From Candidatus Uabimicrobium helgolandensis (GTDB taxonomy: Bacteria > Planctomycetota > Uabimicrobiia > Uabimicrobiales > Uabimicrobiaceae): 64,000 nt of DNA. The DNA lies in assembly GCF_041508025.1 (NCBI RefSeq), contig NZ_CP165719.1, forward strand, positions 736,023 through 800,022. Reading direction: 5' to 3'. A program made the position numbers and the translations under genes. Under the pieces are notes generated by a model that was given only the letters and a program-made list of their open reading frames with translations, did not search any database and was not told the DNA's origin. Below, in pieces: positions 2,466-29,031 of the stretch (position 1 is the first letter of the stretch; every line of letters starts with the position of its first letter).

Positions 2466-3119
2466 TTAACGAAAAAGTCTTCTGGTTTCATGGCGTGCTT
2501 TGCGAAATGCAGTAACAACTTCTTGCGACATTTCTCTTGTATCTTGCGTGGTAAAACCTGGCTCAAACAAGGCTGAACCAATAGCAAAACCTGTAGCTCC
2601 TGCTTTCATCCACGATTTAATGTTTCCTGGATGAATACCACCTACTGCAAAGACAGACACATCAGAAGGTAAAACGACTCTTATTGACCGTAAGTATTTA
2701 GGTCCATAAAATTCTGCGGGAAATAGTTTAAGGTGCTTTGCGCCAGAGTTTATCGCATGAAAAGCTTCTGTTGGTGTTGTGAATCCTGGTATTGGAATAA
2801 TATTTTTTTCTAAAATATGCGAAATAATTTTAGGGCAAGTGTTAGGAGCCACGGCAATTTCAGCATTGATTTGTTTTATATTTTCTACATCTTTAGTGGT
2901 AACAACAGTCCCTGCACCACAAACTATGTGATGAGAAAAATTTTCTTGCAAAATTTTGATGCTTTTTAAAGCATCAGGGCAATTGAGTGGAATTTCAATA
3001 ATACGAATTCCTGCCAAAACAAGTTCAGTCGCAATATCGATCACCTGACTAGGTTCAATATTACGTAAAATAGCAATAATCGGCATGCTGTCAAAAATCT
3101 TTTTTTGTTTACTATTCAT
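2466..3119 (-). CDS. eda: KDPG/KHG aldolase family (Eda-like) 2-dehydro-3-deoxy-phosphogluconate aldolase
   Basis: 217 aa. The motifs GAGTVV..., PG..TPTE and LKLFPA typical of the Eda/DgoA family are present. Eda versus DgoA cannot be told apart from sequence alone. Confidence 0.7.
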   Translation of the reverse strand: MNSKQKKIFDSMPIIAILRNIEPSQVIDIATELVLAGIRIIEIPLNCPDALKSIKILQENFSHHIVCGAGTVVTTKDVENIKQINAEIAVAPNTCPKIISHILEKNIIPIPGFTTPTEAFHAINSGAKHLKLFPAEFYGPKYLRSIRVVLPSDVSVFAVGGIHPGNIKSWMKAGATGFAIGSALFEPGFTTQDTREMSQEVVTAFRKARHETRRLFR

Positions 3120-3273: not shown

Positions 3274-6200
3274 TCACTTGCCTAAACTAGGTAAGCGAAG
3301 ATTAGGGATGCTTTTGATAGCAAAGGTATCAGATACACGTGAATGATATAAATACTGTGTAATACGAAGAGGCTCGTTGTCCATTGCGTAATCTAATGCT
3401 CTTTCAGGAATACTATTTCGAAATAATAGCTCGTGAGACTTTCTTGGAATTTGTTCATCTTTTTGAGATACAATTTTCAAAATCCATTCGGGCGTTTTTA
3501 TCTGTCGATTGCTAACAGGCAGAGTTTGCCACAGACGAATTGTTTTGTCAAGAGATGCTGTTAACAAAACACCATTATAATGGTCTATACTCAAAACCGC
3601 TTTGCGATGTTGGGCAACAGTACTTACTTTTTTTGAAGTAATGAGGTCCCACCATACAACACTATTATCTTTGGAAGAAGAAAATAAAGCATGGTACTTA
3701 CTATCATAAATAAGCTGTGTGATTTGCGCGCGATGCCCTTCAAAAGTTTGGACTTCTTCACGTTTTTTCAAATCCCATACATGTATTACCCCGGCTTTTT
3801 TTGAAAAAATTAATTGATCTCCGCGTATATATACAAGTGTTTGAACTAAATGTTCTAATTCACATAACGTATATGAATAATCAGCAACTTTTAAATTCCA
3901 CAACTGTATGCTTTTAGAGCCAGTAACAAGCCAATTACCATCATAACTATAATCTAAAACACTTAATTTTTCTTTGTATTTAAGCTGGTAGGTTACCTGC
4001 CCACTTTTCAAATTTTGAATGATGATTTCATTTTTGTTTTTGTAAGCTAAATTGTCTTTGTATGTAGTAAAAACCTTTTCACCAGGAATACTGCGCACAA
4101 ATGAGTAGTCTTTGCTACTCCAAATATAAAGTTCGTTATTATTGCTAGCACCGACAATGTAATTCTTTATGTATTTTACACGTACAACCTTGTGATTATG
4201 CCCATCTAAATTAGCCACAACTTTTTTGTTACTCACATTCCAAACTTTGACCGTTTTATCATCTGAAGATGACACGAAATGTTGTGCATTTGGACTATAA
4301 CTAACCGAGTTTACTTTACTAGAATGGTCGCCAAAAAAAGCGACGTGTTTATTATGTGGAGCACGCCATAAACGCACAATACTGTTTGTGGCGCTTGCAA
4401 CAAATTTTCCATCTTTGCTGTAAGTAATTCCGCGCGTGCTTTTATTTTCTCTATCAATATAAGCAAGAGGAACCTCTGTACCTAAATTGAGCAATACTGC
4501 TGGTTTTGTTTTATAAGCAATGCCAATTGTGTTGCCATCAGGACTAAAACAAATATCATTTACCAAAGCTTGGTCTTCTTTAAAAGTACGTATTTCTTGG
4601 CCTGTCACAATATTCCATAAGCGAGTTGTTCTATCTTGTGATGCAGAAACAATACTGCGTCCTTGCGGATGAAACTTCACAAAGGTTACAGGTTCTTTAT
4701 GTCCAAAAAGTACGAAAATAGCTTTATTTTTTCCCATATTCCAAATACGAATAGTTTTGTCACTAGAGCCAGAAGCAATAAATTGACCTTGTGGACTTAT
4801 AGCAACTTTTAAAATAGAAGAGTTATGTCCAGCAAGAACAGTGACTACTTTCCTGGTTTTTAAACTCCACAGGCGAATAGTTTTATCATCTGAACCTGAG
4901 ATAAGCCACTTACCATCGTTACTAATTACTATGCTATTTACTGGAGAAGTATGTCCAGTATAATTGATGTAGCTAGGTTTTTGAGTTGTAGTGTTCCATG
5001 CAATTGTCTCTTTACGCGAAATAGAGACAATACTATTTTGGATTTGACGTACACTCAAGACTTGGTCGTTGTGCCCTTCTAAAGTAGCAACATTTCTTTT
5101 GGAACGAACGCTCCACAATTTAACCGTTTTATCTGAAGAAGAAGATATTAAATACTTATTGTCAGTACTAAAGGCAATGTCTTTTACCCATGATTTATGA
5201 CCAGTAAGTTGCGCTAGTTTTTGCCCGCTTTGCGCATCCCACAAGTATACATTTTTACCAGCAATTGAAGCAAGTAGAGTTTCATCTTTGGAAAAGGCCA
5301 TCGCTGTAACTTCTGTACTATGTTTGTCGAATGAGCGTACAAGTTTTCCTGAACGCAAATTCCACAATCGCAAAGAACGATCAGAAGAAATCGAGTAAAT
5401 ATAATCTTGCTTACGACTATAATGTATGTTGGTGATTTGTGCTGAGTGTTTTTTTAAAGTATATTTTGGCTGACTATTTGTTAAGGTCCAAACCAGAATT
5501 TTCTTATTTTTATCTCCTGAACAAATAAAATTACTTGTGCGATCAAAAGTTAAACAAGTGATGTCTTTTTTGTGTCCGTTGTATTTTCGTATAGGTTTGC
5601 CTGTTTTTGCATTCCATAGATACACTGATTTACGAGAACTCCCCGCTAATTTTTTACCGTCAGGACTACAGCTGAGTTTGTAGATAGACTCATTTGTTTT
5701 TAACGTTTGCTTCACGCGTCCTGTATTGGTGTCCCATATACGAATTGTGCGATCTTCTGCTGTTGAAATAATTCCTGAGGAGTCTGGCAAAAACGCAATA
5801 TCGTTAATTTCGGCACTGTGTCCTTTGAGAGATCGTATTAGTTCTCCCTTTGTGTCCCATAAACACACAGTATTATCTTTTGCCACAGTCGCATATAATT
5901 GCTGGTTAGGAGCTATTTGTAACATGGTGATTTCGCCATCATGCGCGACCATTTTTTGGGCTTTTTGTTTTCTTGTGTTCCATAAGAAAATACTATTGTC
6001 TTTGTTTGCAGTGGCGATAAAAGAGGAATTTGGATGATACGCTATATCGCGAATTTTGGATGCACTTTTCCATTCACCAATGTATTTGCCATGTTGATCT
6101 AGCAGTTGCAATAAGTTATCTGAAGAAATAGCAATTGTTTTCATGTCTGGTCCATAACGCAAACACTTGATATTTTTTGGGCGATGAAAAATCGCACGTT

Positions 6201-9200
6201 TTTGTTCTCTACTTTTGGAAAATGGATAAACATATACTTGATTATTTATGCCTACAATTGCTTGTAAATGATCATTATAATGCGCTTCATGTATCTGTGA
6301 AGTAAACGATTTTTTTGCTATCAGTTTTAACGAACTAGCCTCAAATAATGTTGCCTGTTTCGAAGAAAAAACGATTAAATTATTACCATCTGCAGAATAC
6401 GAAAGAGATAATGCTTTTGTAGGCAAATCGATGTTTTTTAAAGAACTAAAATCTTTAGTAGAAAGCATTTGTAGTTTATTTTTGGAGTCGATTACTGTTA
6501 TTTGTTGTTTATTCGGATGTAAAGTAATTGCTCTGTAGCTCTCTTTCGATAGATAAATTCTTTTTTTACTGGCTAAGTCCCAAACAATTATACGATTATT
6601 TGTGCTAAGATATACTAGTTTCGAATCTTCGAGGTGAACATCAAATGAGCTACGCGGAATTTCTTTACAAGCCATTGTCGAAATCAGTTCTTGTTTTTGG
6701 GTATTCCAAATGCGAATGGTTTTATCTTTACTTATAGAAACGAGCTTATAGCCTTCATCGAGGTAGATTGTTGCGACTATTTCTCGCTGATGGCCACGAA
6801 GTATTCTTTCGTCACTATTTTCATCTATAGACCAAATGTGTATACTATTATGATTTTGCGACACGGCAGCAATTTCTTTGTTATACGGATGAAAAACACA
6901 AAAAGTAAACTGCGCTGACAGTTGTTGAAAAATATTATTTAAGCGACCAGTACTCGTGTCCCACAAATGTACATTGCTATCTGTTGTTACACTTGCAAGC
7001 ATTTTGCCATCTTGACTGGAGGTAATATGAGAAACAGGAGTGCTGTAATGAGGAGTTGTTTCCCAAACTAAACCCTCTTTCATTAGTGCTAGCTTTACAA
7101 ATTTCTTGTTCTTATTGCGAATCTCATCCACTTCATCTGGTGGTAAATTTTTTGTGAGCTCTAAACTAGCACTTGAAAATAAAAGACTATCTTTCCATTG
7201 CTGATTATCAAACGCTTCGCTAGCCTTTTGTAATGAAATTTTAGCCAATGTTTTTTTTGCAGCTTTGGCTTCAGCAAAACGAATGCGCTCTTCGCGTTTT
7301 GCTTTCATCCTTTCAAATTCGGCTCGTCGTGCTGCTTCTTCAGCTATTTTTTTTTGCTTTTCAACTTTTTCAGTTTCGCGCTTAGCAATATCTCGTTGTT
7401 CCTGGGCTTCTTTCGAGTTAACTTTTGCAATGGCCTCTTGTTTTTTCGCTTGTGTGGCATTTTTTTCTGCAAGCAAATGTTCTTGGCGTATAAAATACAA
7501 ACTAACACTCAATACTAAAAACGTAAGAAGTACTGAACCCAATAACAATAATCGTACTCGTTGCGAAGACTTTTCTGCTTTTATTTTTTGTTGTTTTGCC
7601 TGTTGAATTTGTTGTCGTACTTGTTGAACTTGTGGATCATCGCGGTCTAATTCATCAATCTGAGCTTCACTTAAACCTAAATCATCGTTTCTTAAAGCTA
7701 TCGTTGAATAGGCAATACGTGCAGCATATCTTCCTTCTTTAGCAATTGTATTTCCTGTCCACAGTTTTAACGATTGCTCGAAACAACTAACTGCTTTCGA
7801 AAACTCAGCATAAAGGTGGTTTCTTTGTTTTCCTTTGAGTTTTTTATCTTGAGCTTGTTGGTTTTCTTCTAATATTTTTTGACCTTCTCCAGAGATAATT
7901 AAGCTCTCGCGGTGTTTTAAGAAATAGGCTATAGCTTTTTTGAAATCATCAACATCTTGGAAACGATCTTCTGGAAGTTTTGATAGGGATTTACTGCATA
8001 TATCTTTTAACTCATGTGGAATATGATCTTCAATGAATAAATCATCGCGTTTTTGATCAAAACTTGGCTTGTCAGAAGCAATGGCTTTCATTAATGATTT
8101 CCATATATTCTCATCGTAATGTGGTGGTTTGCCGGTGATAATTTCGTGCAGAATCGCTCCGAGAAGATATGTGTCTGTCCACGGACCTATTTCTTTTCCA
8201 CAGCCTTCAGCTAATTCAGGACTCATATAATGAGGTGTTCCCATTGGGCTTGTAACCATTGATTTATGAAGCGTACGTAACTCCGGTGAAATTTCATCTC
8301 TAGAAACTGCAAGTCCCCAGTCCATCACTAAAACTTCCCCAAATTCACCTATCATAATATTTTCTGGCTTTAAATCATTATGAACAATACCTTTGTTGTG
8401 CGCAAAAGCCATTGCATCACATACGTCGAGTAAAATGCGTAAATGTGCTTCTAAGTCGTACTGTTTAAAACGCTCGTTTTCTGCCGTTTTGTTTAATATC
8501 TTTTTCCATTCCACCCCTTTTACTAATTTCATTGTAAGGAATACATTGCCGTTTATATTTTGACCTAGCTCATAAACAGGAACAATATTTGGATGGTCAA
8601 GGTATGCAGTAACAAGAGCTTCAGAAATAAATTTTTGCTGACTCACATTGTTAATACTTCCAGGAATGATTCTCTTTATTGCAATTTCACGTTTAAGACT
8701 TTTTTGTTCACCTTTGTTGATAATTCCCATACCACCACGAGCTATTTCAGTTCCAATTACAAAATTTTCTGAGCGCGAGTCAAGTTTACTTTTAATGCCA
8801 TCATGTAGGGTATCTTTCATACTGTGAGTTGTTGTGGCTCTTAAAGGATTTTGTGGCGTTTTTTGTTGCGGTTGATCATCATCACAAATAGTTTTTGAAT
8901 CTTCTAGGCATTCATTTTGCACTGCGTCATTGTCTTGTGCGCCAATGATTGTATTTGCTGCACTCATGCTTTTTTCATCGATGATGTTATCAAAAAGAGT
9001 TTGTGCTCCTTTTTCTAAGTCAGATATTTCAGAAGGTAATTCTTCAGAGCTACCATCTAAAGTTTGATTGCCACTTGCACAATCGGGCAAACTTTTTATC
9101 AAATCATCTTTGCTATCAAAATTCGCATCCAAAGTTTGGTCACCTTGTAAGTCATTATTTACAGGGCTATTATCGTTATCTAAAATTTCAGTGGCTATCG

Positions 9201-9813
9201 TTTGGTCGTCTAAAGTTTGGTCACCCTGCAAGTCGTTGTTTACAGGGCTGTTATCGTTATCTAAGGTTTCAGTGGCTATCGTTTGATCGTCTAAAGTTTG
9301 GTCGCCCTGCAAGTCATTGTTTACAGGGCTGTTATCGTTATCTAAGGTTTCAGTGGCTATCGTTTGATCGTCTAAAGTTTGGTCGCCCTGCAAGTCATTG
9401 TTTACAGGGCTGTTATCGTTATCTAAAGTTTCAGTGGCTATCGTTTGATCGTCTAAAGTTTGGTCGCCCTGCAAGTCATTGTTTACAGAGCTGTTATCGT
9501 TATCTAAAGTTTGGTCACCTTGTAAACCATTATTTACAGGACTATTGTTATCAACAGCTGTTTCTTGAACTTGTACAGGAGTTCCAGTAGCTGTTTCATT
9601 AATTGTTTCGTCTCCCTCGGAGATCACTGATCCTTTTGGAGTAATTACTTCAATACTCGTATCGTTTTTGTTGAGCAAAGTCATGAGTGGTAAATATACA
9701 TTTTTGCTTGCAAGAGATTCAGCACCTTTATATGTAGTTCCACCACCACCACGCTCTAATTGCTCAGCTCCAATTGTTTTTGACCAAAGTTCGTGAATTG
9801 TTTTTTCATCCAT
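3274..9813 (-). CDS. Giant Ser/Thr protein kinase (Hanks-type) with N-terminal acidic tandem repeats, TM segment, coiled coil and about 20 or more C-terminal WD40 repeats
   Basis: 2179 aa. The kinase catalytic loop HNDLKPENIMI, the DWGLA (DFG-like) motif and SPE (APE) are present. A hydrophobic stretch (LLLLGSVLLTFLVLSVSLYF) and a K/E-rich coiled coil follow. Repeated WD40 signatures (e.g. GH...V..V.FSPDG, WD/WN dipeptides) run to the C-terminus. The RBS GAGGG lies 8 nt upstream of ATG 9813. Confidence 0.9.
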   Translation of the reverse strand: MDEKTIHELWSKTIGAEQLERGGGGTTYKGAESLASKNVYLPLMTLLNKNDTSIEVITPKGSVISEGDETINETATGTPVQVQETAVDNNSPVNNGLQGDQTLDNDNSSVNNDLQGDQTLDDQTIATETLDNDNSPVNNDLQGDQTLDDQTIATETLDNDNSPVNNDLQGDQTLDDQTIATETLDNDNSPVNNDLQGDQTLDDQTIATEILDNDNSPVNNDLQGDQTLDANFDSKDDLIKSLPDCASGNQTLDGSSEELPSEISDLEKGAQTLFDNIIDEKSMSAANTIIGAQDNDAVQNECLEDSKTICDDDQPQQKTPQNPLRATTTHSMKDTLHDGIKSKLDSRSENFVIGTEIARGGMGIINKGEQKSLKREIAIKRIIPGSINNVSQQKFISEALVTAYLDHPNIVPVYELGQNINGNVFLTMKLVKGVEWKKILNKTAENERFKQYDLEAHLRILLDVCDAMAFAHNKGIVHNDLKPENIMIGEFGEVLVMDWGLAVSRDEISPELRTLHKSMVTSPMGTPHYMSPELAEGCGKEIGPWTDTYLLGAILHEIITGKPPHYDENIWKSLMKAIASDKPSFDQKRDDLFIEDHIPHELKDICSKSLSKLPEDRFQDVDDFKKAIAYFLKHRESLIISGEGQKILEENQQAQDKKLKGKQRNHLYAEFSKAVSCFEQSLKLWTGNTIAKEGRYAARIAYSTIALRNDDLGLSEAQIDELDRDDPQVQQVRQQIQQAKQQKIKAEKSSQRVRLLLLGSVLLTFLVLSVSLYFIRQEHLLAEKNATQAKKQEAIAKVNSKEAQEQRDIAKRETEKVEKQKKIAEEAARRAEFERMKAKREERIRFAEAKAAKKTLAKISLQKASEAFDNQQWKDSLLFSSASLELTKNLPPDEVDEIRNKNKKFVKLALMKEGLVWETTPHYSTPVSHITSSQDGKMLASVTTDSNVHLWDTSTGRLNNIFQQLSAQFTFCVFHPYNKEIAAVSQNHNSIHIWSIDENSDERILRGHQREIVATIYLDEGYKLVSISKDKTIRIWNTQKQELISTMACKEIPRSSFDVHLEDSKLVYLSTNNRIIVWDLASKKRIYLSKESYRAITLHPNKQQITVIDSKNKLQMLSTKDFSSLKNIDLPTKALSLSYSADGNNLIVFSSKQATLFEASSLKLIAKKSFTSQIHEAHYNDHLQAIVGINNQVYVYPFSKSREQKRAIFHRPKNIKCLRYGPDMKTIAISSDNLLQLLDQHGKYIGEWKSASKIRDIAYHPNSSFIATANKDNSIFLWNTRKQKAQKMVAHDGEITMLQIAPNQQLYATVAKDNTVCLWDTKGELIRSLKGHSAEINDIAFLPDSSGIISTAEDRTIRIWDTNTGRVKQTLKTNESIYKLSCSPDGKKLAGSSRKSVYLWNAKTGKPIRKYNGHKKDITCLTFDRTSNFICSGDKNKKILVWTLTNSQPKYTLKKHSAQITNIHYSRKQDYIYSISSDRSLRLWNLRSGKLVRSFDKHSTEVTAMAFSKDETLLASIAGKNVYLWDAQSGQKLAQLTGHKSWVKDIAFSTDNKYLISSSSDKTVKLWSVRSKRNVATLEGHNDQVLSVRQIQNSIVSISRKETIAWNTTTQKPSYINYTGHTSPVNSIVISNDGKWLISGSDDKTIRLWSLKTRKVVTVLAGHNSSILKVAISPQGQFIASGSSDKTIRIWNMGKNKAIFVLFGHKEPVTFVKFHPQGRSIVSASQDRTTRLWNIVTGQEIRTFKEDQALVNDICFSPDGNTIGIAYKTKPAVLLNLGTEVPLAYIDRENKSTRGITYSKDGKFVASATNSIVRLWRAPHNKHVAFFGDHSSKVNSVSYSPNAQHFVSSSDDKTVKVWNVSNKKVVANLDGHNHKVVRVKYIKNYIVGASNNNELYIWSSKDYSFVRSIPGEKVFTTYKDNLAYKNKNEIIIQNLKSGQVTYQLKYKEKLSVLDYSYDGNWLVTGSKSIQLWNLKVADYSYTLCELEHLVQTLVYIRGDQLIFSKKAGVIHVWDLKKREEVQTFEGHRAQITQLIYDSKYHALFSSSKDNSVVWWDLITSKKVSTVAQHRKAVLSIDHYNGVLLTASLDKTIRLWQTLPVSNRQIKTPEWILKIVSQKDEQIPRKSHELLFRNSIPERALDYAMDNEPLRITQYLYHSRVSDTFAIKSIPNLRLPSLGK
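9123..9552 (-). repeat. In-frame 81-bp tandem repeat array (about 5 copies) inside the kinase N-terminus, encoding DNDNSPVNNDLQGDQTLDDQTIATETL
   Basis: Near-identical 81-nt units are visible directly in the DNA (…ggtcgccctgcaagtcattgtttacagggctgttatcgttatctaa…). The + strand shadow ORFs 9003..9590 and 9068..9286 are artefacts of this repeat. Confidence 0.85.
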
Positions 9814-9835
9814 GTATATTACCCTCTCATTTCAA

Positions 9836-10558
9836 CTATTTTTGTTGTAAGGCTGCATCAAGAAAATGTTGTGCTTCAATATTATCAGCATTGATTTTTA
9901 AAGCTTTACGTAAATATAGTTCTGCTCTTTTAGGGCGATCTTTTTTTAGGTAAGATCGTCCTAATAGTGTATATGCCTTATCATCACCACCTAATTTGAC
10001 AGCCTTTTTACACATTGCAATAGCTTTATCCACATCTCCACCTGCAATAGGAGGATTGTAGTAATACATTTTTGCTTTTGCAACATGCGCAAATGCGTTA
10101 CTTTTATCAGTACTCAGAGATTTATTGAGGTCGTTTAATGCTTGCGGACCTTTTGTCATCCCCGATAAAAAGCCAACGATTGCATGAGAAAGTAGTTCTC
10201 CGCGAATTCTGTACAAGTCTGCCCAATTCGGCCTACTTTTAAATAACGGGCTGAGGATTTTTATACCTTTTTCTGCTGCTTTCGCTGTTCCTGGGCGAGT
10301 AATATTTTTGCCTTCTGTATTGGGCAATTCTCGGCGAAAAAATCTTTCGACATTGCAATAAGCTAAACAAACTCTTGCAAACCAGTACCGAGCATTGTCA
10401 TTGTTTGAGTTTTGCGCAATCCAATTTTCTAAATCTTGTTGTATTTTTGATAGATTTTTTAACGAGTAGGTTTTTTCTACTTGTTCTGCTTGTTTTATAA
10501 GCTCAGGAGATGCAGTAACGCTTATTAAAAACAATAAAATAAAACATACTTTTTTCAT
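9836..10558 (-). CDS. TPR-repeat secreted/lipoprotein, co-oriented 22 bp upstream of the giant kinase
   Basis: It has a signal peptide (MKKVCFILLFLISVTAS) and TPR-like A/Y/L periodicity. A strong RBS AAGGAG lies 5 nt before the ATG. Confidence 0.7.
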   Translation of the reverse strand: MKKVCFILLFLISVTASPELIKQAEQVEKTYSLKNLSKIQQDLENWIAQNSNNDNARYWFARVCLAYCNVERFFRRELPNTEGKNITRPGTAKAAEKGIKILSPLFKSRPNWADLYRIRGELLSHAIVGFLSGMTKGPQALNDLNKSLSTDKSNAFAHVAKAKMYYYNPPIAGGDVDKAIAMCKKAVKLGGDDKAYTLLGRSYLKKDRPKRAELYLRKALKINADNIEAQHFLDAALQQK

Positions 10559-12256: not shown

Positions 12257-14308
12257 TTACTCACAATCACAACGTTTAGTAATATCTTGTTCTGCACAAA
12301 GTTCATGAACCCATTTGCGTAATTGCTTTTCGTTGTATTGTGTTAAGTCTTTTAGCGTTTGCCAGTCATTTTCTTTTCCAGACAATTTCATTAAGCCTCG
12401 GTATATGCGCGATGCACTTTTATAATATGGGTCATCGCTGGGAAGACGTCCGTACCACGCCCAGTAAACCATTGTAAAAATTCCTTCGAAACTAGCGTCT
12501 AAACGTTCCATAACTTGAAACAAATAAAAATCGATATATTTTGTGTGCCGTACACCAAATAATTCCGCTACATGTTCAAATCGCGTTTGGATATTGTTAG
12601 GAGAGAATCCCTGTTTCCAGAGCAAGCCTAAGTGTCTACCAATATTGTTTTGAATTGGCATATAACAAGGTAGGTCATTTATATGACCTAATTCATGATT
12701 ATGAACAGTATCAAGGCGTCTTTCTAGAATTAAATTAAAAAAGGTATCCCACTTTTCATTTTCCGTTTTTGGTAATTTTTTTACTTGTTTTCTTAAAGCG
12801 CGTTTCAAGAAAATATCAGCTATAGATTTTGAGTAAGGCAAGTAATCTTTATCTGCCATGGAAAATTTTTCAGGAAATTTTACTGGTTGAGTAATGCGTT
12901 TGTATAAGTCTTGTAGAGTAACTATGTGAGGACGCAGAGTATCTACTGCAACATAAAATCCGTTATTTGATAAAAATGCACGCCCTGCTATGGTTGGAGC
13001 TCCGGAAAAATAACCACTGTAAGAATCGATAAATGTTTCATCACATGTTATTGCTTGGTAAGTTCTTGGTTTTCCCCATATTTCGCGTTGGTATGTACGG
13101 TGACACAAGCGGTTCATTAAACGTATTTCAATTTGCCCATAGTTATTACCCATATCGAAAAATTTATTGTAGCGAGCAAAATAAGAGCATAGAGTTTGTG
13201 CTTTAGGATTAAAGGGATTTGCTTCGCGAACAACCCAAAAATAATTTTGAAATTCACGACTGGGTGACGCCGGAAGATCAATACTAAACGTCGCGGCTAT
13301 ACGGCGAATGTCACTTAGCATGGTTACAATATCGCGGCGTGTAGTTTGGTAATATTTAGCCACATATTTCCGCAAAGCTTTTAAAAATTGTATGTGATTT
13401 TGTAATTTTTGTTTTTCTTCATCGAACCCTGTTACTTGATCATAAACAATAACCGCTTCTTCTTCCCACCCTACAAAAGTAAGTGAGCGAGCTAGCTCTA
13501 ATAAAGACTCATTATTATTTTCTTGGACGCTTTTTATCGCTTTTTGCAAACGAAGATAGCGCAAGCGAACTTTATTGTCCTCGTGGAAAACTAAACGCTG
13601 CGGAACAATTCTTAGCCAAATATTATAGGCGGTGGCATATTGCTTATTTTGTAGTAAAAATCTTCGGTACAGTTTAACAGTACGTAAAGAATATGGGTTT
13701 TCGATGATCGCCTTTTCCAATAGTAATTTCCCCGTTTGTATTGCGCCTTTTTCGAGAGAGAAATGGCCTTTCATTGTTAGCAAAAAATTTTGTCGAGGAA
13801 AATATTTTAGAGCCTCATCTAATAGTAAATCTCCACTTTCTGGTAGTTCTTTTTCGTAAAGAGTTAGCAATTCTCGCCAATAAGAAGTTAACAGTCCAAG
13901 ATTTTCATCATTGTTAAATTCATAATTCGGATGTAGTATTTTTACTTTGTGTATTTCTTTTGCAGCAGATAAAAATTGTCCGTATAGTAAATAATTCGCC
14001 GCTTCAAAAAAATAAGGTTTGATAAGAGAAGAATCTAATGAATGTGCTGTACGTGCCGCATCTAAAGCATCTTGCCATTTTAATTGACCAAGCAAAATAA
14101 ATGCGCGCAGCTCGTAAAAATTTGGCGCGCTTACGTCATGTTCAATTGCGGCATCAATAAGAATTAGTGCTTCATCAAGATTTTTCTCATCATATTTTTT
14201 TTGCGCTTGTGTAAACTCATTTTGCGCAGTACTTTTATCTACAGGATTCAATTCGAGAAAAGAACAACTACTTGTTATAGTTATCATAAAAATCAAAAAT
14301 ATTTTCAT
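12257..14308 (-). CDS. TPR-containing lipoprotein with HExxH zinc-metallopeptidase-like motif
   Basis: It has a signal/lipobox (ITITSSC). The N-terminal third is TPR-like. A central HNHELGHIND (HExxH) motif is present. Its start ATGA overlaps the thiolase stop. Confidence 0.6.
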   Translation of the reverse strand: MKIFLIFMITITSSCSFLELNPVDKSTAQNEFTQAQKKYDEKNLDEALILIDAAIEHDVSAPNFYELRAFILLGQLKWQDALDAARTAHSLDSSLIKPYFFEAANYLLYGQFLSAAKEIHKVKILHPNYEFNNDENLGLLTSYWRELLTLYEKELPESGDLLLDEALKYFPRQNFLLTMKGHFSLEKGAIQTGKLLLEKAIIENPYSLRTVKLYRRFLLQNKQYATAYNIWLRIVPQRLVFHEDNKVRLRYLRLQKAIKSVQENNNESLLELARSLTFVGWEEEAVIVYDQVTGFDEEKQKLQNHIQFLKALRKYVAKYYQTTRRDIVTMLSDIRRIAATFSIDLPASPSREFQNYFWVVREANPFNPKAQTLCSYFARYNKFFDMGNNYGQIEIRLMNRLCHRTYQREIWGKPRTYQAITCDETFIDSYSGYFSGAPTIAGRAFLSNNGFYVAVDTLRPHIVTLQDLYKRITQPVKFPEKFSMADKDYLPYSKSIADIFLKRALRKQVKKLPKTENEKWDTFFNLILERRLDTVHNHELGHINDLPCYMPIQNNIGRHLGLLWKQGFSPNNIQTRFEHVAELFGVRHTKYIDFYLFQVMERLDASFEGIFTMVYWAWYGRLPSDDPYYKSASRIYRGLMKLSGKENDWQTLKDLTQYNEKQLRKWVHELCAEQDITKRCDCE

Positions 14309-15591
14309 ATTTTTTCCACGACAAAACTAGCCCCTTGTCCACCACCAACGCATAAAGTTGCCAAACCAACTGATTTGTCTTGTCGTTCGAGTTCGTTGAC
14401 AAGGTTCATTACGATTCTTACAGCAGATGCTCCTACAGGATGGCCAAGAGCAATTGCTCCACCATTTACATTGACAATTGTTTCATCTAGTTCTCCTAAA
14501 GCTGGACGTTTCAAATATTTTTCACTTAGTTTATTGCAAGAAAAAATGCGGAGGTTAGCTAAAACTTGGACAGCAAATGCTTCATTGATTTCGACAAGGT
14601 CCACATCTTTCATTGTCATTTTGGCTTTATCAAGAGCGAGTGGCGTGGCGTAAGCTGGTCCAAGCCCCATGTAGGAAGGGTCGAGTCCGGCGAATGCAAA
14701 CGAGCGTATTCGCGCAACAGGTTTGTATCCCATTTTTTTGGCATGTTCTTCTTCCATAACTAGTAACATCGCAGCGCCATCGGTAATTTGACTAGCATTT
14801 CCCGCGGTAACAGTTCCACTTTCTTTTTTGAATACTGTTTTTAATTTTGCTAATTTGTCGGTGTTTTCAAGTTCGCGAACACCATTGTCTTGAGAAATAT
14901 AACTATCTTCATCATCTTCATCAACGAGATAGGGCATAATTTCCGAAGTAAATTTGCCATCGTCGATCGCTTTTTTTGCGCGTTGGTGACTACGTAAAGA
15001 AAAAAGGTCTTGTTCCTCGCGAGAAATCGAAAAATCATGAGCAAGTATTTCAGCAGTGTGTCCCATTTCTAGACCACATGAACGATCAGATAGTATCAAT
15101 TTTAAACCAATCACTGGGCGATAATAATTCATTTTAAACTTTGCTAGCATTCGATATTGTTGCCATTTTCCTCGACAACGCATAAATTTTTGTAGCCAAT
15201 TTCGTGCTCCGGCATTCCACATTAGAGGAATTTGTGACATATTTTCTGCCCCACCGACAATAAAGGTGTTACCCATATCGGCTTGAATTTTTTGGTAAGC
15301 ATAAGCAATGGCTTCCATACCGCTGGCGCAGTTTCTTTGCACTGTTACTGCAGGAATACGATGAGGTAAATCAGCAAGGAGTGCTATATGGCGCGCTAGA
15401 TTAGCCGCTTCTGGAGGTTGGGCCACATTGCCTATAATAACTTCGTCGATATTTTGTGTATCTAGCTCACTTCGTTTTACCAGTTCTTTTACAACTGTCG
15501 CCCCCAAGTCATATGCTGGGATATTCTTAAATTCACTATTTATTTTTAAAAACGGTGTACGCAAACTTCTGACAATTACAACATTTTTCAT
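14305..15591 (-). CDS. Acetyl-CoA C-acyltransferase (thiolase)
   Basis: The thiolase active-site regions NRNCASGMEAI, NVNGGAIALGHPVGASAVRIV and GLATLCVGGGQG are present. The start was chosen at ATG 15591 (MKNVVIV) with AGGAAA upstream, rather than the longer ORF start at 15666. Confidence 0.85.
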   Translation of the reverse strand: MKNVVIVRSLRTPFLKINSEFKNIPAYDLGATVVKELVKRSELDTQNIDEVIIGNVAQPPEAANLARHIALLADLPHRIPAVTVQRNCASGMEAIAYAYQKIQADMGNTFIVGGAENMSQIPLMWNAGARNWLQKFMRCRGKWQQYRMLAKFKMNYYRPVIGLKLILSDRSCGLEMGHTAEILAHDFSISREEQDLFSLRSHQRAKKAIDDGKFTSEIMPYLVDEDDEDSYISQDNGVRELENTDKLAKLKTVFKKESGTVTAGNASQITDGAAMLLVMEEEHAKKMGYKPVARIRSFAFAGLDPSYMGLGPAYATPLALDKAKMTMKDVDLVEINEAFAVQVLANLRIFSCNKLSEKYLKRPALGELDETIVNVNGGAIALGHPVGASAVRIVMNLVNELERQDKSVGLATLCVGGGQGASFVVEKI

Positions 15592-15773
15592 ATAAATTTT
15601 CCTAAAAACTACTTGCACATAACGATGATAACTTTTACGATGGGGGGAAATTTGCCTTGGGCGCATCGACTTTAAGTTTTCATATAATATTTGATATTAT
15701 ACAACGAAGACAAATGTCGACTCACCCTCTACGAATAAGCCCACGATTCTTTCTCATTTTAATGGATACTTTG

Positions 15774-16859: not shown

Positions 16860-17411
16860 ATGCTAGAAGATAATGAACTTATAGAATTGTTCCAACAAGG
16901 TGAAATACAAGTGTTTGAAATACTTGTTGAACGCTATAGCTCGCGTATTATTAATTTTTTATATCGTCTTTGCTGGCATAGAGAGTTAGCAGAGGATCTA
17001 GCACAAGAATCGTTTATAAAACTATATCGTAGTTTGAATCGCTATGAAACAGAAGGTAATTTTAAGGCTTATATGTTTACTATTGCTAAAAACGTTTGGA
17101 TTGATTTTCTACGTAGTAAAAAAGGAAAAACAGAACTAAAAAAACAAGCAGGCGATAGTGAAATTATATTTGAAAATTTAAAATCTACAGAACCTTCTGT
17201 CGAAGACATGGTTTATTATAAAGAAAAATTAGAACTATTAGAAACGACAGTAAATCAGTTATCAGAAGAACAAAAAATGGTTTTTATGTTGTACCACGAT
17301 GATATGAAGTATGCTGAAATTGCAGAGATTCTATCCATTCCAGAAGGAACGGTGAAATCGCGATTGCACCATGCATTTAACAAGATCAAAAAAGTATTGT
17401 TTGAGGAATAG
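16860..17411 (+). CDS. ECF-type RNA polymerase sigma-70 factor
   Basis: It has the sigma70 region 2 (LAQESFIKLYRSL…YMFTIAKNVWIDFLR) and region 4 HTH (YAEIAEILSIPEGTVKSRLHHA). It starts 3 nt after the HEAT lipoprotein stop. Confidence 0.85.
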   Translation: MLEDNELIELFQQGEIQVFEILVERYSSRIINFLYRLCWHRELAEDLAQESFIKLYRSLNRYETEGNFKAYMFTIAKNVWIDFLRSKKGKTELKKQAGDSEIIFENLKSTEPSVEDMVYYKEKLELLETTVNQLSEEQKMVFMLYHDDMKYAEIAEILSIPEGTVKSRLHHAFNKIKKVLFEE

Positions 17412-20454: not shown

Positions 20455-21411
20455 ATGAAATTACAACAAATTGTTAAAACACCATACTTGGCATCGCGTA
20501 TTGCTTACGGATGTATGGGAATTGGTGGTTCTTGGGATCATAATTCTTTAAATATAAACGAACAGAGAAATGCCACCATAGCAATTGAAACAGCATTTGA
20601 AACTGGCATTAATATTTTTGATCACGCAGACATATACTGCTTCGGTAAATCGGAACATGCTTTTGCTCAGTTTATTATTGATAAACCCCACTTACGCGAC
20701 AAAATTATTTTACAGAGTAAGTGTGGCATTCGCATTGCAACAGATAATCATATAGGTCATTACGATTTTAGTTATGATCATATTATTAATTCTGTTGAGC
20801 AGAGTTTAAAACGTCTGCAGACTTCTTATTTGGATATTTTGCTTTTACATCGCCCAGATGTTCTTGTAGAAGGAGAAGAAGTTGCGAAAGCTTTTTCAGA
20901 GCTCCATCAAAGTGGTAAGGTACGTTTTTTTGGTGTCAGTAATCATACTGTTATGCAGATAATGTATTTACAAAAATACATACAACAACCTCTTGTTATT
21001 AATCAAGTGCAGCTCAACGTTATTGACAATGATTTGTTCAATTCTGGAATTGTTGGAGGTGGAGGAAATTCGTTAGATAGTGTTGGTTTAGTAGAATATT
21101 GTCGCATCAATGATATTACAATTCAAGCATGGGGACCATTAGCATCAGGAAAGATATTTGTGGAACAGCCTCAAAACCATCGAGTTGCTGCGGTACAGAA
21201 AGTACTTCATAAACTGGCAGAGAAGTATTGTACAAATACTATGGCTATTGCTCTAGCATGGATACTCCTTCATCCTGCCCAAATACAACCTGTCATTGGT
21301 AGTTCTAATCCTTCACGTATTCGCAATGCTTGTGAGGCCATTAATGTTGATCTTACGCGTTCAGAGTGGTATGAACTTTTCGTTGCGGGGCGAGGAGCAA
21401 ATTTACCCTAA
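20455..21411 (+). CDS. Aldo/keto reductase family oxidoreductase
   Basis: RIAYGCMGIGGSW, FDHADIYCFGKSE and LLHRPD motifs are present. The ATG at 20455 with GGAG 9 nt upstream was preferred over the TTG at 20440. Confidence 0.8.
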   Translation: MKLQQIVKTPYLASRIAYGCMGIGGSWDHNSLNINEQRNATIAIETAFETGINIFDHADIYCFGKSEHAFAQFIIDKPHLRDKIILQSKCGIRIATDNHIGHYDFSYDHIINSVEQSLKRLQTSYLDILLLHRPDVLVEGEEVAKAFSELHQSGKVRFFGVSNHTVMQIMYLQKYIQQPLVINQVQLNVIDNDLFNSGIVGGGGNSLDSVGLVEYCRINDITIQAWGPLASGKIFVEQPQNHRVAAVQKVLHKLAEKYCTNTMAIALAWILLHPAQIQPVIGSSNPSRIRNACEAINVDLTRSEWYELFVAGRGANLP

Positions 21412-22769
21412 TCAAATACCACTTCGCAATTTGGTAACCATTTGCGTATTTTGTCTTGCTCGGTTAGAGAAATGTTATTATCTATTAGATAAATTTGCGA
21501 AAGCTTCGGTAAATTTTTGATTGTTTGTGGAAGAAATTGTAGCTTGTTGTTATCTAAATGCAAAACTTTTAAAGACGATAGATTACCAAATTCTAGGGGA
21601 AGTACTTGTAGTTGGTTGCTACTTAAATCTAAAAACGCTAAATTGGTGAGAGAGCCAAATTCAGATGGTAAGCTTTTAAGCTCATTGCTTGATAGATTTA
21701 GTCTATACAGACTTTTTAATTGTCCAAACTCTAACGGTAAAGTGGTTAAATAGTTACTTGATAAATCTGCCTTATACAAGCTATGTAAATTCCCAAAATG
21801 TGATGGTAAAGTATACAATTTGTTTTTACATATTTCTAGTTTGCGTAAATTATGTAAGTTCCCAAAGTCTTTTGGTAACGACGTTAGGCTATTTTCTGTT
21901 AAATCCAAATCCGTCAATTTAGTCATGCCACTCAAATTTTTTGGCAAGGCGGTTAGTTCATTTCCTTGGAGATTAATACTTATAATATTTTGTAGCTGAC
22001 TTATGTTTATAGGTAGTTTTTGTAGTTGGTTATCTTTTATCGTCAATCTTTCTAAATTTGAGAGTTGCGAAAAACCCTCAGGTAAAAATTGTAAATTATT
22101 ATTAGTTAAAACCAAGCGCTCTAACTTTTCTAACTTTCCTAGATAATCAGGAAGAGCAACAAATAAATTGTTTTGCAAATTAAGGTATTGCAATTTTTTC
22201 TGAGTGTATAAACTTTGTGGTAGAGTTTGCAGTTTATTATATGAAAGGTCTAGTGTTTCTATATTCGATAAATAAAAATTTGGGCATAGTGAAGAAATTT
22301 GGTTGCCTGATAAATCGAGTGTTTGCAATTCTCGCAACTGATTTATTTGCTGAGGAACAGTTACAATTTTATTGTTAGATAAATCTAATACTGACAGCTT
22401 TTCTATACAACCAATTACCGTTGGAATTTGTGAAATATTGCGCCAGCGTAGAGAAATAATCGTATTTTTGGGAGCTTGATGAAAATAAGCTAGATCTTTC
22501 GTTGTTATTTGTGAAATCCTCCAATCACTTGCTCTCCAAACAGCTAGTTCGTAGCTTCCTCGTCCAATCACAATGTAAATAGAAAAGTAGTTTTGAAAAG
22601 AAAAAGAGCAGATTTTGTAGTTATTGCCATAAGCTTTTTGTAATTCACTTCGCGCTCTAAAGTATACTACCGTTAACGTTGCAATAGCTACATTGGATAG
22701 AATAAAAATGATGATCAAAGACTTGACAATCCAGCCTGTTTTTTTGTGTTTAGTATTTTTAGAATTCAT
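21408..22769 (-). CDS. Membrane-anchored leucine-rich repeat protein (about 15 LRRs)
   Basis: It has an N-terminal TM (IIFILSNVAIATLTVVYF) followed by consecutive 23-aa LxxLxLxxNxLxxLPxxxxxLxx units. Its 3' end overlaps the aldo/keto reductase gene convergently by 4 nt. Confidence 0.8.
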   Translation of the reverse strand: MNSKNTKHKKTGWIVKSLIIIFILSNVAIATLTVVYFRARSELQKAYGNNYKICSFSFQNYFSIYIVIGRGSYELAVWRASDWRISQITTKDLAYFHQAPKNTIISLRWRNISQIPTVIGCIEKLSVLDLSNNKIVTVPQQINQLRELQTLDLSGNQISSLCPNFYLSNIETLDLSYNKLQTLPQSLYTQKKLQYLNLQNNLFVALPDYLGKLEKLERLVLTNNNLQFLPEGFSQLSNLERLTIKDNQLQKLPINISQLQNIISINLQGNELTALPKNLSGMTKLTDLDLTENSLTSLPKDFGNLHNLRKLEICKNKLYTLPSHFGNLHSLYKADLSSNYLTTLPLEFGQLKSLYRLNLSSNELKSLPSEFGSLTNLAFLDLSSNQLQVLPLEFGNLSSLKVLHLDNNKLQFLPQTIKNLPKLSQIYLIDNNISLTEQDKIRKWLPNCEVVFD

Positions 22770-22968
22770 ACAAAAAAAGACCTTATAAATTTTCAAAATC
22801 AATAGAGGTATAGTGAGTTGGTGAAATAACACCGCTACCAACTTCTACGATATTATATTTTAAATAGTCTTACCATAAGCTGTTTTTTTCTGAATAAGCC
22901 AATTTTTATGTTCGAATTTACAAAAAAATAGATGCCAAAACTATTCTAAACCATTATAATTTAAGCAA

Positions 22969-28262: not shown

Positions 28263-28272
28263 AGAGTATTCC

Positions 28273-29031
28273 TTAATTTTTACGAGCAATAAAAATCATT
28301 TTTTGACTAGTATGTTCGAATGGTCTTTCATCGTACCAACCAAAAACATTTTCCACTGTGAAATTTGCTTGCTCTAATAATAGCTCCATCTCATAGCGAT
28401 GCACATAACGCAATATTTCGGTATACGGATAACGTTTTACTTCGCCGTCACAGCAAAGTTCTATGATATTGTTAGCAATAAGAACTTGTCGTGCGCTATC
28501 ATAGCGTCCACTGCACCAATGGTTCAATGTTGTATTTTCTTTGTAGTTTTCAATACACATAAGCAAAGATAGTTGCCCTTGGCACTGGGGTTGTTTTAGC
28601 AAATAAAATGGATGGAATACATCAATAACAAGTTTTGCGCCGGAAGTAAGATGCTTTGATATGTTTTGCAAACATATTTTTTGATGGGTAATAGAGGGGA
28701 GTAGTAAAAAAGAATTTGCTGCAATAAAAACACCCGATATTTTTCGAGGCAAGTTAAATTTTGTCATGTCGTCTTTTTGCCATTGTATGTATTTTTGTAA
28801 ATTTAAAGGGCATTTCTCTTGTCCCTTATCCAACATTGCCTGACTGATATCTAGAGCAATCATATGATGTTTTTTGGCAGCAAGTTCAATCGCTAAACGT
28901 CCCGTACCAGTGGCAAGCTCCAATAATGGATCTTCACTAGGAGTAAATACCCTTTCGTACAGAGGGAGATCATGAAGAAAACTAACGCAGACATCGTAGA
29001 AATCAACTTCATTATGACTGGGAGCACCCAA
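28273..29031 (-). CDS. Class I SAM-dependent methyltransferase
   Basis: Motif I is LELATGTGRLAIELA and motif post-I is MIALDIS. The apparent start is TTG at 29031 with AAAGG upstream. Confidence 0.7.
   Translation of the reverse strand: MGAPSHNEVDFYDVCVSFLHDLPLYERVFTPSEDPLLELATGTGRLAIELAAKKHHMIALDISQAMLDKGQEKCPLNLQKYIQWQKDDMTKFNLPRKISGVFIAANSFLLLPSITHQKICLQNISKHLTSGAKLVIDVFHPFYLLKQPQCQGQLSLLMCIENYKENTTLNHWCSGRYDSARQVLIANNIIELCCDGEVKRYPYTEILRYVHRYEMELLLEQANFTVENVFGWYDERPFEHTSQKMIFIARKN

Follow-up and report, generated by a model that had tools for sequence, protein, structure and literature searches.

A window of 64,000 nucleotides from the genome of Candidatus Uabimicrobium helgolandensis (contig NZ_CP165719.1, positions 736,023 to 800,022) contains an open reading frame (ORF) at 3274-9813 of the minus strand that encodes, without interruption, a protein of 2179 amino acids (aa) combining a tandem-repeat array, a protein kinase domain, one strongly hydrophobic segment and a long WD40 region. 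The questions raised by this locus are what type of protein such a combination represents, what the repeat array in front of the kinase contributes to it, and on which side of the membrane its propellers are located. The protein is 100% identical to WP_372368674.1, annotated as 'protein kinase [Candidatus Uabimicrobium sp. HlEnr_7]', HlEnr_7 being the second member in culture of Candidatus Uabimicrobium, a planctomycete genus that engulfs prey. The gene very probably encodes a single-pass, receptor-type bacterial Ser/Thr kinase of a planctomycete-wide family, in which a kinase, a helical domain, a transmembrane (TM) helix, a stalk and a WD40 region follow one another, with an array of putative threonine sites in the tail preceding the kinase. 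All features of this gene described below are on the minus strand, and their coordinates are those of the window. An earlier, sequence-only reading of this DNA had proposed the order of acidic repeats, Hanks kinase, TM helix, charged helix and WD40 propellers, and this order was confirmed by profile searches and structural models.

The kinase domain occupies aa 351-632 (7918-8763) and is matched by the Pfam profile Pkinase (PF00069) over aa 353-618 with a score of 128 bits against a cut-off of 31.7, while its nearest solved structures are the kinase domains of Mycobacterium tuberculosis PknB (E = 1e-26). It is of the Hanks type and retains all catalytic residues, namely K380 (within IAIK), E398, D480 and N485 (within HNDLKPEN) and D498 (within DWG); E398, D480, N485 and D498 are invariant in alignments of 56 and of 110 sequences, and K380 is invariant in the former and nearly invariant in the latter. 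Since the arginine of the HRD motif is replaced by Asn (HND), the kinase is a non-RD variant, a replacement found in 15 of the 110 homologues, including all Uabimicrobium sequences. The domain is 85-89% identical among orthologues and is predicted to be catalytically complete and PknB-like. The comparison with eukaryote-like signalling scaffolds that had been drawn for this protein is misleading, because its kinase is most similar to PknB of bacteria and because the succession kinase-TM-WD40 is widespread in Planctomycetota.

The kinase is followed by a conserved helical juxtamembrane domain, predicted to be cytoplasmic (aa 633-752, 7558-7917), the end of which, ahead of the TM helix, is rich in Q and in K/R. 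In the AlphaFold2 model of the N-terminal half of the protein (aa 1-904, based on a 56-sequence alignment), the helices of aa 621-720 form a four-helix domain with predicted local distance difference test (pLDDT) scores of 96-98, and the kinase together with this domain (aa 345-720) scores mostly above 90. Residues W685, A691, A706 and D711 of the juxtamembrane region are invariant across the 110 homologues.

A single TM helix is placed at aa 753-775 (7489-7557) on the basis of hydrophobicity and of 105 of the 110 homologues. Its hydrophobic segment, aa 755-775 (LLLLGSVLLTFLVLSVSLYFI), comprises 21 residues, none of which is charged or strongly polar (N, Q, H), and has a mean Kyte-Doolittle value of 2.36, an Eisenberg <H> of 0.79 and a hydrophobic moment of 0.03; it is the sole segment of this kind across the 2179 aa. 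The sequence-only reading had considered that an amphipathic helix might be mistaken here for a membrane-spanning one, and because of the low moment and the absence of charges the assignment as a genuine TM helix stands. One continuous helix of the AlphaFold2 model (aa 727-790) takes in the segment, and exactly one strongly hydrophobic segment is present in 105 of the 110 best homologues, located 240-280 aa past the catalytic loop (approximately 275 aa in the present protein).

Beyond the TM helix, an E/K/R/A-rich helical stalk (aa 776 to about 887) and a helical cap (aa 888-921) extend over 7051-7488 and are predicted to be periplasmic. The stalk is about 110 aa long, consists to 44% of E, R or K, and is modelled by AlphaFold2 as a single 92-residue helix (aa 796-887). 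Within aa 776-860 (7234-7488), Ala (or V, I or R) recurs at each seventh residue for approximately 12 heptads with no second hydrophobic stripe, the power of the periodicity being 48.7 at 7 residues, 8.3 at 3.5 and 21.9 at 3.6, and the family consensus of the stalk likewise shows AxxxxxxA. This region had been described as a K/E coiled coil; a charged, E/K/R/A-rich helix is indeed present, but a canonical coiled coil with an a/d pattern was rejected, because hydrophobic periodicity at 3.5 residues is not significant (p = 0.42) and only the period-7 alanine stripe is found, for which reason the segment is referred to as a helical stalk. The stalk may form an Alacoil-like tight helix pairing or may act as a single stable helix. 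Tandem repeats of 21 bp (7 codons) also occur at 7587-7633, in the Q-rich stretch that immediately precedes the TM helix, and in the stalk of an orthologue on a metagenome contig (L002, 12401-12469), where they encode AEQSAKE units; heptad-sized insertions and deletions apparently adjust helix length in the kinase-WD40 family.

The WD40 region, aa 922-2096 (3526-7050), is matched by Pfam WD40 with 431 bits and comprises about 27-28 blades, predicted to be periplasmic. A custom hidden Markov model (HMM) of the repeat identifies 24 blades at a spacing that fits 28, and the AlphaFold2 model of aa 905-2104 is all-beta, with a mean pLDDT of 77.9 and 109 strands, corresponding to about 27-28 blades. 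Low-confidence linkers at aa 1170-1211, 1768-1809 and 1976-2006 of this model suggest about four propellers of approximately seven blades each. The top Foldseek match, 2ymu, has E = 9e-46, 30% identity and a target-normalised TM-score of 0.62, so that the about 1200 aa of WD40 propellers proposed from the sequence are supported by the HMM, AlphaFold2 and Foldseek alike. The protein ends in a tail of 83 aa (aa 2097-2179, 3277-3525) that is specific to the Uabimicrobium clade and is 80% identical to that of the closest orthologue (P0002), whereas the propellers are only 48-66% identical; related C-terminal tails are seen in paralogues P0004 and P0012. A Pfam scan of the isolated C-terminal tail, of the juxtamembrane-stalk segment and of the N-terminal tail returned no credible family.

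The same collinear architecture is found in 105 of the 110 homologues, which come from several planctomycetal orders. Because the juxtamembrane residues are invariant and the position of the TM helix is fixed across these orders, common descent is indicated rather than repeated assembly. This points to a kinase-TM-stalk-WD40 family of common origin and would add a nuance to the view of Odelgard et al. (PMC11032199) that the kinase-TM-WD40 architecture arose independently of eukaryotes and that similar architectures arose repeatedly. Within the family, the HlEnr_7 kinase lacks the N-terminal CxxC...CxxC element present in 74 of the 110 homologues, and it further differs from most members in having HND instead of HRD, a clade-specific head, the repeat array and the C-terminal tail.

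The tail in front of the kinase (aa 1-350) is acidic, with a net charge of -56 over aa 1-357, up to the glycine loop. It begins with a head (aa 1-87, 9553-9813) that carries the conserved helix motif MDEKxIxxLWSKTIGA...TYK, is modelled as helical at aa 3-21 (pLDDT 68-85), is 67-69% identical among orthologues and resembles the heads of paralogues P0004, P0009 and P0011. The head is followed by an in-frame tandem array of 81-bp (27-aa) units, which in unit register covers aa 88-228 (9130-9552) and for which Tandem Repeats Finder reports a period of 81, 4.7 copies, 96% matches and a score of 680 at 9131-9512. A diverged partial unit of 16 aa (aa 88-103) precedes four full units (aa 104-211, 9181-9504; DNDNSPVNNDLQGDQTLDDQTIATETL), and a partial fifth unit of 17 aa (aa 212-228) follows them. 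The five near-perfect repeats at 9123-9552 of the sequence-only reading are thus correct as to the array and its span, although the count was slightly generous, with four full copies, one partial and one degenerate. Units 2 and 3 do not differ at any of their 81 nucleotides, and the outer units differ by 2-7 mostly synonymous substitutions; such near-identity, far beyond chance, is the usual sign of an array that has recently been amplified or homogenised. Between the array and the kinase lies an acidic linker (aa 229-350, 8764-9129) with further G-x-Q-T-L motifs (GNQTLD, GAQTLF) and a pLDDT below 50; the whole of aa 32-334, array included, scores below 50 and is predicted to be disordered. 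An antisense ORF of 195 aa (9003-9590, plus strand) that overlaps the array is most likely a by-product of a repeat without opposite-strand stops and not a gene.

A recurring feature of this tail is a threonine followed by a hydrophobic residue. Every 27-aa unit contains QTLD, QTIA and ETLD, L or I follows 22 of the 38 Thr residues of the disordered tail, and the motif G-x-Q-T-[LIM]-D is common to three independently amplified units of 81, 159 and 165 bp in the orthologues described below; the number of G-x-Q-T-[LIM] occurrences in the pre-kinase tails is nearly constant, at 8, 9 and 9 in the three orthologues. Across 107 non-orthologous homologues, L, I, M, V or F comes directly after 52% of the Thr residues of the tail, compared with 19% predicted from composition and 23% in the rest of the proteins, and the position before the Thr is enriched in Q (3.1-fold), K (2.4-fold) and R (1.8-fold), while Ser residues in the same 107 tails show no such hydrophobic-following pattern. 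The median is 11 Thr-hydrophobic sites per tail, and at least 5 are present in 93 of 110 tails. Paralogues P0004-P0006 amplify related units, such as G-T-L-S-G-Q-T-[LIF], and a matching RTLH, unchanged among the orthologues, is found in the activation loop itself. The 105-aa N-terminal tail of an unrelated kinase at 41775-43826 (plus strand) also has six [Q/H/E]-T-[VMIL] sites, although the enrichment in that tail taken alone is not significant (p = 0.10). That kinase has 683 aa, is of the HRD type (Pkinase, 191 bits), and carries a His/Asp/Pro/Lys-rich low-complexity region (...HPHNDRPHHDRPHDNGPHDKNKHPHDD...) after its hydrophobic segment.

The threonine sites are predicted to be preferred sites of autophosphorylation or of phospho-Thr docking, the number of which would be tuned by the repeats. 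We know of no prior description of G-x-Q-T-[LIM]-D. More generally, it is conceivable, albeit rather unlikely, that the tails of planctomycetal receptor kinases hold an undescribed [Q/K/R]-T-hydrophobic motif, with G-x-Q-T-[LIM]-D as its form in the present protein, for multivalent autophosphorylation and phospho-Thr docking, whose valency is reset by tandem duplication and yet held at 8-9 in Uabimicrobium. Among the alternatives, the one that survives best is that the acidic repeat tail is a neutral low-complexity spacer or 'entropic bristle' and that the threonine pattern is a by-product of amplifying an arbitrary unit, a possible though somewhat unlikely account; it would be in keeping with the predicted disorder, the lack of a Pfam family, the low identity of 25-30% between orthologues and the weak enrichment outside the array (9 of 21 Thr in the 2179-aa protein, p = 0.02), but leaves aside that three independently amplified units all include G-x-Q-T-[LIM]-D, that the [Q/K/R]-T-hydrophobic bias recurs in the tails of 107 distant homologues and not around Ser, and that the pattern appears in the unrelated kinase at 41775-43826, the tail of which is, however, not significantly enriched on its own.

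The history of the array can be followed in the orthologous loci, namely the HlEnr_7 window, those of U. amorphum (L001 and L003) and the metagenome contig L002 from ENA (encoding P0002, 63% identity). The U. amorphum orthologue, WP_368239115.1 (P0123, 2202 aa), is 57-60% identical overall and 85% identical in the kinase domain. All three orthologous loci share the order of an exonuclease gene on the opposite strand, the kinase gene and an aldolase gene, the last of which is located at 2466-3119 in the window, after the kinase gene. In every orthologue an array occupies one and the same position, flanked by the conserved anchors QETAVD and EISDLEKGAQTLF, but the unit and copy number differ: 81 bp in 4.7 copies in HlEnr_7, 159 bp in 2.8 copies in U. 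amorphum and 165 bp in 1.8 copies in L002. The repeat-tail region is a divergent part of the protein, with 25-30% identity between orthologues versus 85-89% in the kinase domain. On an evolutionary scale, the lability of the array expected from its near-identical repeats is therefore real, with three different arrays at one site in three orthologues, and the 81-bp array is a recent, lineage-specific, in-frame amplification.

A stronger version of this idea, emphasised in the sequence-only reading, would make the array a hypervariable contingency locus at which copy number changes frequently within populations and generates phenotypic variants. This is quite unlikely, even though the 81-bp units are near-identical, the two central copies are 100% identical, and unit length and copy number vary among the three orthologues. 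The unit comprises 27 codons within the ORF and gain or loss of whole units stays in frame, so that slippage cannot turn the kinase gene off; the G-x-Q-T-[LIM] count, held at 8-9 across species, looks like constraint; and the array of U. amorphum is unchanged between the 2019 genome and an assembly reported in 2024. In the latter comparison, AP019860 and the re-sequenced genome (encoding P0123) are 100% identical over 1464 aa, array included. As the array is the same in two independent assemblies, it is reproducible on re-assembly and not visibly unstable in the laboratory; this identity argues against an artefact in U. amorphum and lends no support to fast changes of copy number in culture. 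The searches also yielded neither a second HlEnr_7 genome nor a metagenomic fragment of it: a scan of genome contigs with the full protein, in a collection that apparently lacks HlEnr_7 itself, returned only the U. amorphum locus, and a metagenome scan based on the three-orthologue alignment, with patterns placed in the kinase domain, returned 80 loci, all at most 40% identical and paralogue-like, among which there was no orthologue and no second array allele. In AP019860 (L001, 14370-14440) the orthologue is annotated as two genes of 1488 and 736 aa, where one A is apparently missing from a poly-A run (GACAAAAAATATGG, with six As; seven restore DKKIWVW). Since the re-sequenced assembly encodes an intact protein of 2202 aa, this split is most likely a homopolymer sequencing error, which may affect published domain counts for the U. 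amorphum orthologue.

It is very unlikely that the 81-bp array is itself an assembly artefact or has a wrong copy number. The concern arises from the sequencing method, as Nanopore reads of whole-genome-amplified DNA were the basis of the HlEnr_7 assembly (PMC11481906), and from the identity of units 2 and 3, which would conceal the collapse or expansion of a copy. However, the array of 423 bp can be covered by single long reads and is in frame within an intact ORF of 6.5 kb, the outer units are told apart by 2-7 substitutions, most of them synonymous, and both orthologues have arrays at the same site, that of U. amorphum being identical in two assemblies.

The orientation of the protein can be approached through the residues flanking the TM helix. 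In the 15-residue flanks of the 105 single-TM homologues, the mean number of K and R residues is 5.8 on the kinase side versus 3.1 on the WD40 side, the kinase side being the richer in 92% of homologues (Wilcoxon p about 1e-18). Together with the need of the kinase for ATP, this positive-inside bias indicates an N-in, C-out orientation and supports a predicted topology in which the N-terminal 752 aa are cytoplasmic and the C-terminal approximately 1400 aa are periplasmic. According to the study of U. amorphum (PMC11032199), DeepTMHMM places Pkinase domains of that species always in the cytoplasm and the WD40 or TPR arrays of single-pass proteins mostly in the periplasm, and the extracytoplasmic position of the propellers claimed from the sequence is thus upheld by the positive-inside rule over 105 homologues as well as by the published predictions for the sister species. 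That the WD40 region is instead cytoplasmic, as in classical bacterial kinase-WD40 proteins like PkwA, with the hydrophobic segment serving only as a peripheral membrane anchor, is highly improbable. In its favour are the usual cytosolic location of WD40 propellers in eukaryotes, the net charge of +67 of the WD40 part and the fact that the topology is a prediction only. Against it, a single hydrophobic segment of 21 uncharged residues (moment 0.03) must separate the N- and C-terminal parts across the membrane, the ATP that the kinase requires is cytoplasmic, 92-95% of homologues conform to the positive-inside bias, and DeepTMHMM agrees for the family.

Several points weigh against the interpretation as a receptor kinase with a threonine-site tail. 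The topology, the activity, the ligand and the phosphorylation sites are all predictions. The alanine stripe of the stalk is not a canonical a/d coiled coil, and the AlphaFold2 model, being a monomer, is silent on dimerisation. As the tail sequences are related, the statistics of the threonine motif overstate their independence, the enrichment outside the array is weak, and the residue at +3 after the Thr varies (D, N, T, A, G) with no consistent FHA-type position. Neither an FHA nor a PP2C gene was found among the ORFs of at least 150 aa on either side of the kinase (325-24960). The loss of the neighbouring TPR gene from L002, described below, weakens the idea of a TPR partner.

If the protein is indeed a receptor kinase, the stalk would hold the platform of propellers off the inner membrane, and the platform would bind a periplasmic protein or ligand, derived either from the envelope or from prey; the secreted TPR protein that is probably co-transcribed with the kinase would be a candidate partner of the propellers. 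Ligand binding might then alter the oligomeric state or the geometry of the protein through the stalk and the TM helix and thereby activate the cytoplasmic kinase, and the activated kinase may phosphorylate threonines of its own disordered tail. By multiplying G-x-Q-T-[LIM]-D, the 81-bp array would plausibly set how many phospho-acceptor or docking sites the tail has, instead of switching the gene on or off.

Several known systems share parts of this architecture. The mycobacterial receptor PknD combines a cytoplasmic Hanks kinase and one TM helix with an extracytoplasmic beta-propeller sensor, a single six-bladed propeller of the NHL type, and PknB uses PASTA domains. PknB of M. tuberculosis likewise has a cytoplasmic Hanks kinase (structures 1mru and 1o6y), one TM helix and an extracytoplasmic sensor, and the HlEnr_7 kinase differs from both in its approximately 28 WD40 blades, long helical stalk, HND motif and 350-aa acidic tail before the kinase. 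The kinase-WD40 proteins of the PkwA type in actinobacteria and cyanobacteria are cytoplasmic and are not known to have a TM helix. The highly repetitive WD40 protein of Nostoc punctiforme (2ymu) shows a similar tandem of seven-bladed bacterial WD40 propellers, but is a soluble double propeller without a kinase or TM helix. In mycobacteria, as exemplified by PknB with GarA or FhaA, FHA proteins dock on multi-site phospho-Thr of Hanks kinases. The predicted sites at several Thr residues in the disordered, cytoplasmic segment of the HlEnr_7 kinase resemble such a docking region, and FHA domains are abundant in Uabimicrobium kinases, being listed in the U. amorphum study among the abundant accessory domains of the species-specific kinase clades (PMC11032199); the differences are that position +3 is not consistently FHA-like, that an FHA gene is not adjacent and that the tail sites are predictions.

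The closest precedent is the kinase complement of U. amorphum itself, for which Odelgard et al. (2024, Genome Biol Evol, PMC11032199) report 525 Ser/Thr kinases, about 30% of them with WD40 or TPR arrays and mostly single-pass, including 49 that bear WD40 repeats, in arrays reaching 19 Pfam WD40 matches. As in that class, the present protein has an N-terminal Pkinase domain, a single TM helix and a C-terminal WD40 array, with a predicted cytoplasmic kinase and periplasmic WD40 region, and the flanks of the U. amorphum orthologue match those in HlEnr_7 (exonuclease, TPR protein, kinase and aldolase genes), the array unit being 81 bp in HlEnr_7, unlike the 159 bp of U. amorphum. A membrane kinase with periplasmic WD40 propellers is thus already known as a class from the sister species. 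The term 'tandem repeat' has no occurrence in PMC11032199, an N-terminal tail with Thr motifs is not mentioned in the sections of it that were consulted, and the putative Thr-motif array is the only element for which those sections offered no description. The present analysis adds an independent test of topology, the definition of a collinear family, a corrected localisation signal for the neighbouring TPR protein, which is not a lipoprotein, and repeats that multiply a family-wide threonine motif.

The HlEnr_7 kinase provides a clean and complete example of the dominant receptor class, for which three comparable orthologues are at hand and, from re-assembly of one strain, a fourth sequence. 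It is a convenient model for asking whether very large WD40 platforms work in the bacterial periplasm and what cytoplasmic kinase tails do. To our knowledge, Candidatus Uabimicrobium is so far the sole bacterial genus known to engulf prey, and the roughly 8% of the U. amorphum proteome that consists of Ser/Thr kinases is the highest bacterial fraction that we know of. If the tail motif is real, a docking-array tail would be a bacterial counterpart to the phospho-tails with multiple sites that eukaryotic receptors carry and would wire a network of several hundred kinases (525 in U. amorphum) in a prey-engulfing bacterium.

Upstream of the kinase gene, an ORF at 9836-10558 (minus strand) encodes a TPR protein of 240 aa that is predicted to be secreted or periplasmic. 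Three TPR profiles exceed their cut-offs within aa 172-233 (TPR_19 with 35.7 bits against 25, TPR_1 with 34.8 against 27.8 and TPR_8 with 34.1 against 25.7). Its N-terminus (MKKVCFILLFLISVTASPE) combines a Lys-rich n-region and a hydrophobic core with a V-T-A cleavage motif, in which VTA followed by S fits signal peptidase I, with cleavage predicted between MKKVCFILLFLISVTA and SPE. The protein is 69% identical to its U. amorphum counterpart, signal peptide included, and the N-terminus of the latter, MKRLCLLCLFIVSIVA followed by SPE, has the same pattern. The protein had been taken for a lipoprotein, which was not borne out: inspection of the N-terminus by eye revealed no lipobox of the form [LVI][ASTVI][GAS]C at the end of the signal-peptide core, and the only Cys, at position 5, lies ahead of the hydrophobic core.

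The TPR and kinase genes are separated by 22 nt (9814-9835, minus strand). A Shine-Dalgarno-like GAGGG precedes the ATG by 8 nt, and nothing resembling a terminator was found between the two genes on the minus strand; given the short gap, this site and the lack of a terminator-like site, the two genes are probably co-transcribed. The adjacency is shared by HlEnr_7 and U. amorphum (52-nt gap), whereas in L002 only 246 bp lie between the exonuclease and kinase genes and the TPR gene is missing; it is also absent beside the homologues of Planctopirus and Schlesneria. The operon suggested earlier is therefore plausible here and in U. amorphum but not obligatory, and the pairing, to judge from gene order, appears to be lineage-specific and dispensable. 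In Planctopirus hydrillae (L084, 1-3817) and Schlesneria paludicola (L085, 1-3855), a giant gene in the same orientation lies directly upstream of the homologous kinase-WD40 gene, one product having 7050 aa and the other at least 1730 aa with PATR repeats, and the association of the kinase-WD40 gene with a gene for a giant surface protein may be conserved.

The ORFs of at least 150 aa that flank the kinase (325-24960) encode a ceramidase, the aldolase and the exonuclease already mentioned, a TPR-like protein, a thiolase, a HEAT protein, an ECF sigma factor, a HAD hydrolase, ProRS and others. A defence-system interpretation was rejected, the match to MADS6 being weak and at the level of the kinase domain (85 bits against a cut-off of 460). 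A weakly TPR-like protein of 683 aa (12257-14308, minus strand) is syntenic in all three genomes (L001, 3679-7760 in the comparison); a 673-aa protein with Trypsin_2 and Sel1 matches comes before it in U. amorphum and in L002, the place of which is occupied in the HlEnr_7 window by the thiolase gene (14305-15666). A leucine-rich-repeat protein of 477 aa (21408-22841, minus strand) and the ECF sigma factor (16860-17411, plus strand) are encoded less than 13 kb from the kinase. An unusual fusion ORF of 736 aa at 26079-28289 (minus strand) joins an MRJP (major royal jelly protein/Yellow-like) beta-propeller to a following HpcH/HpaI aldolase.

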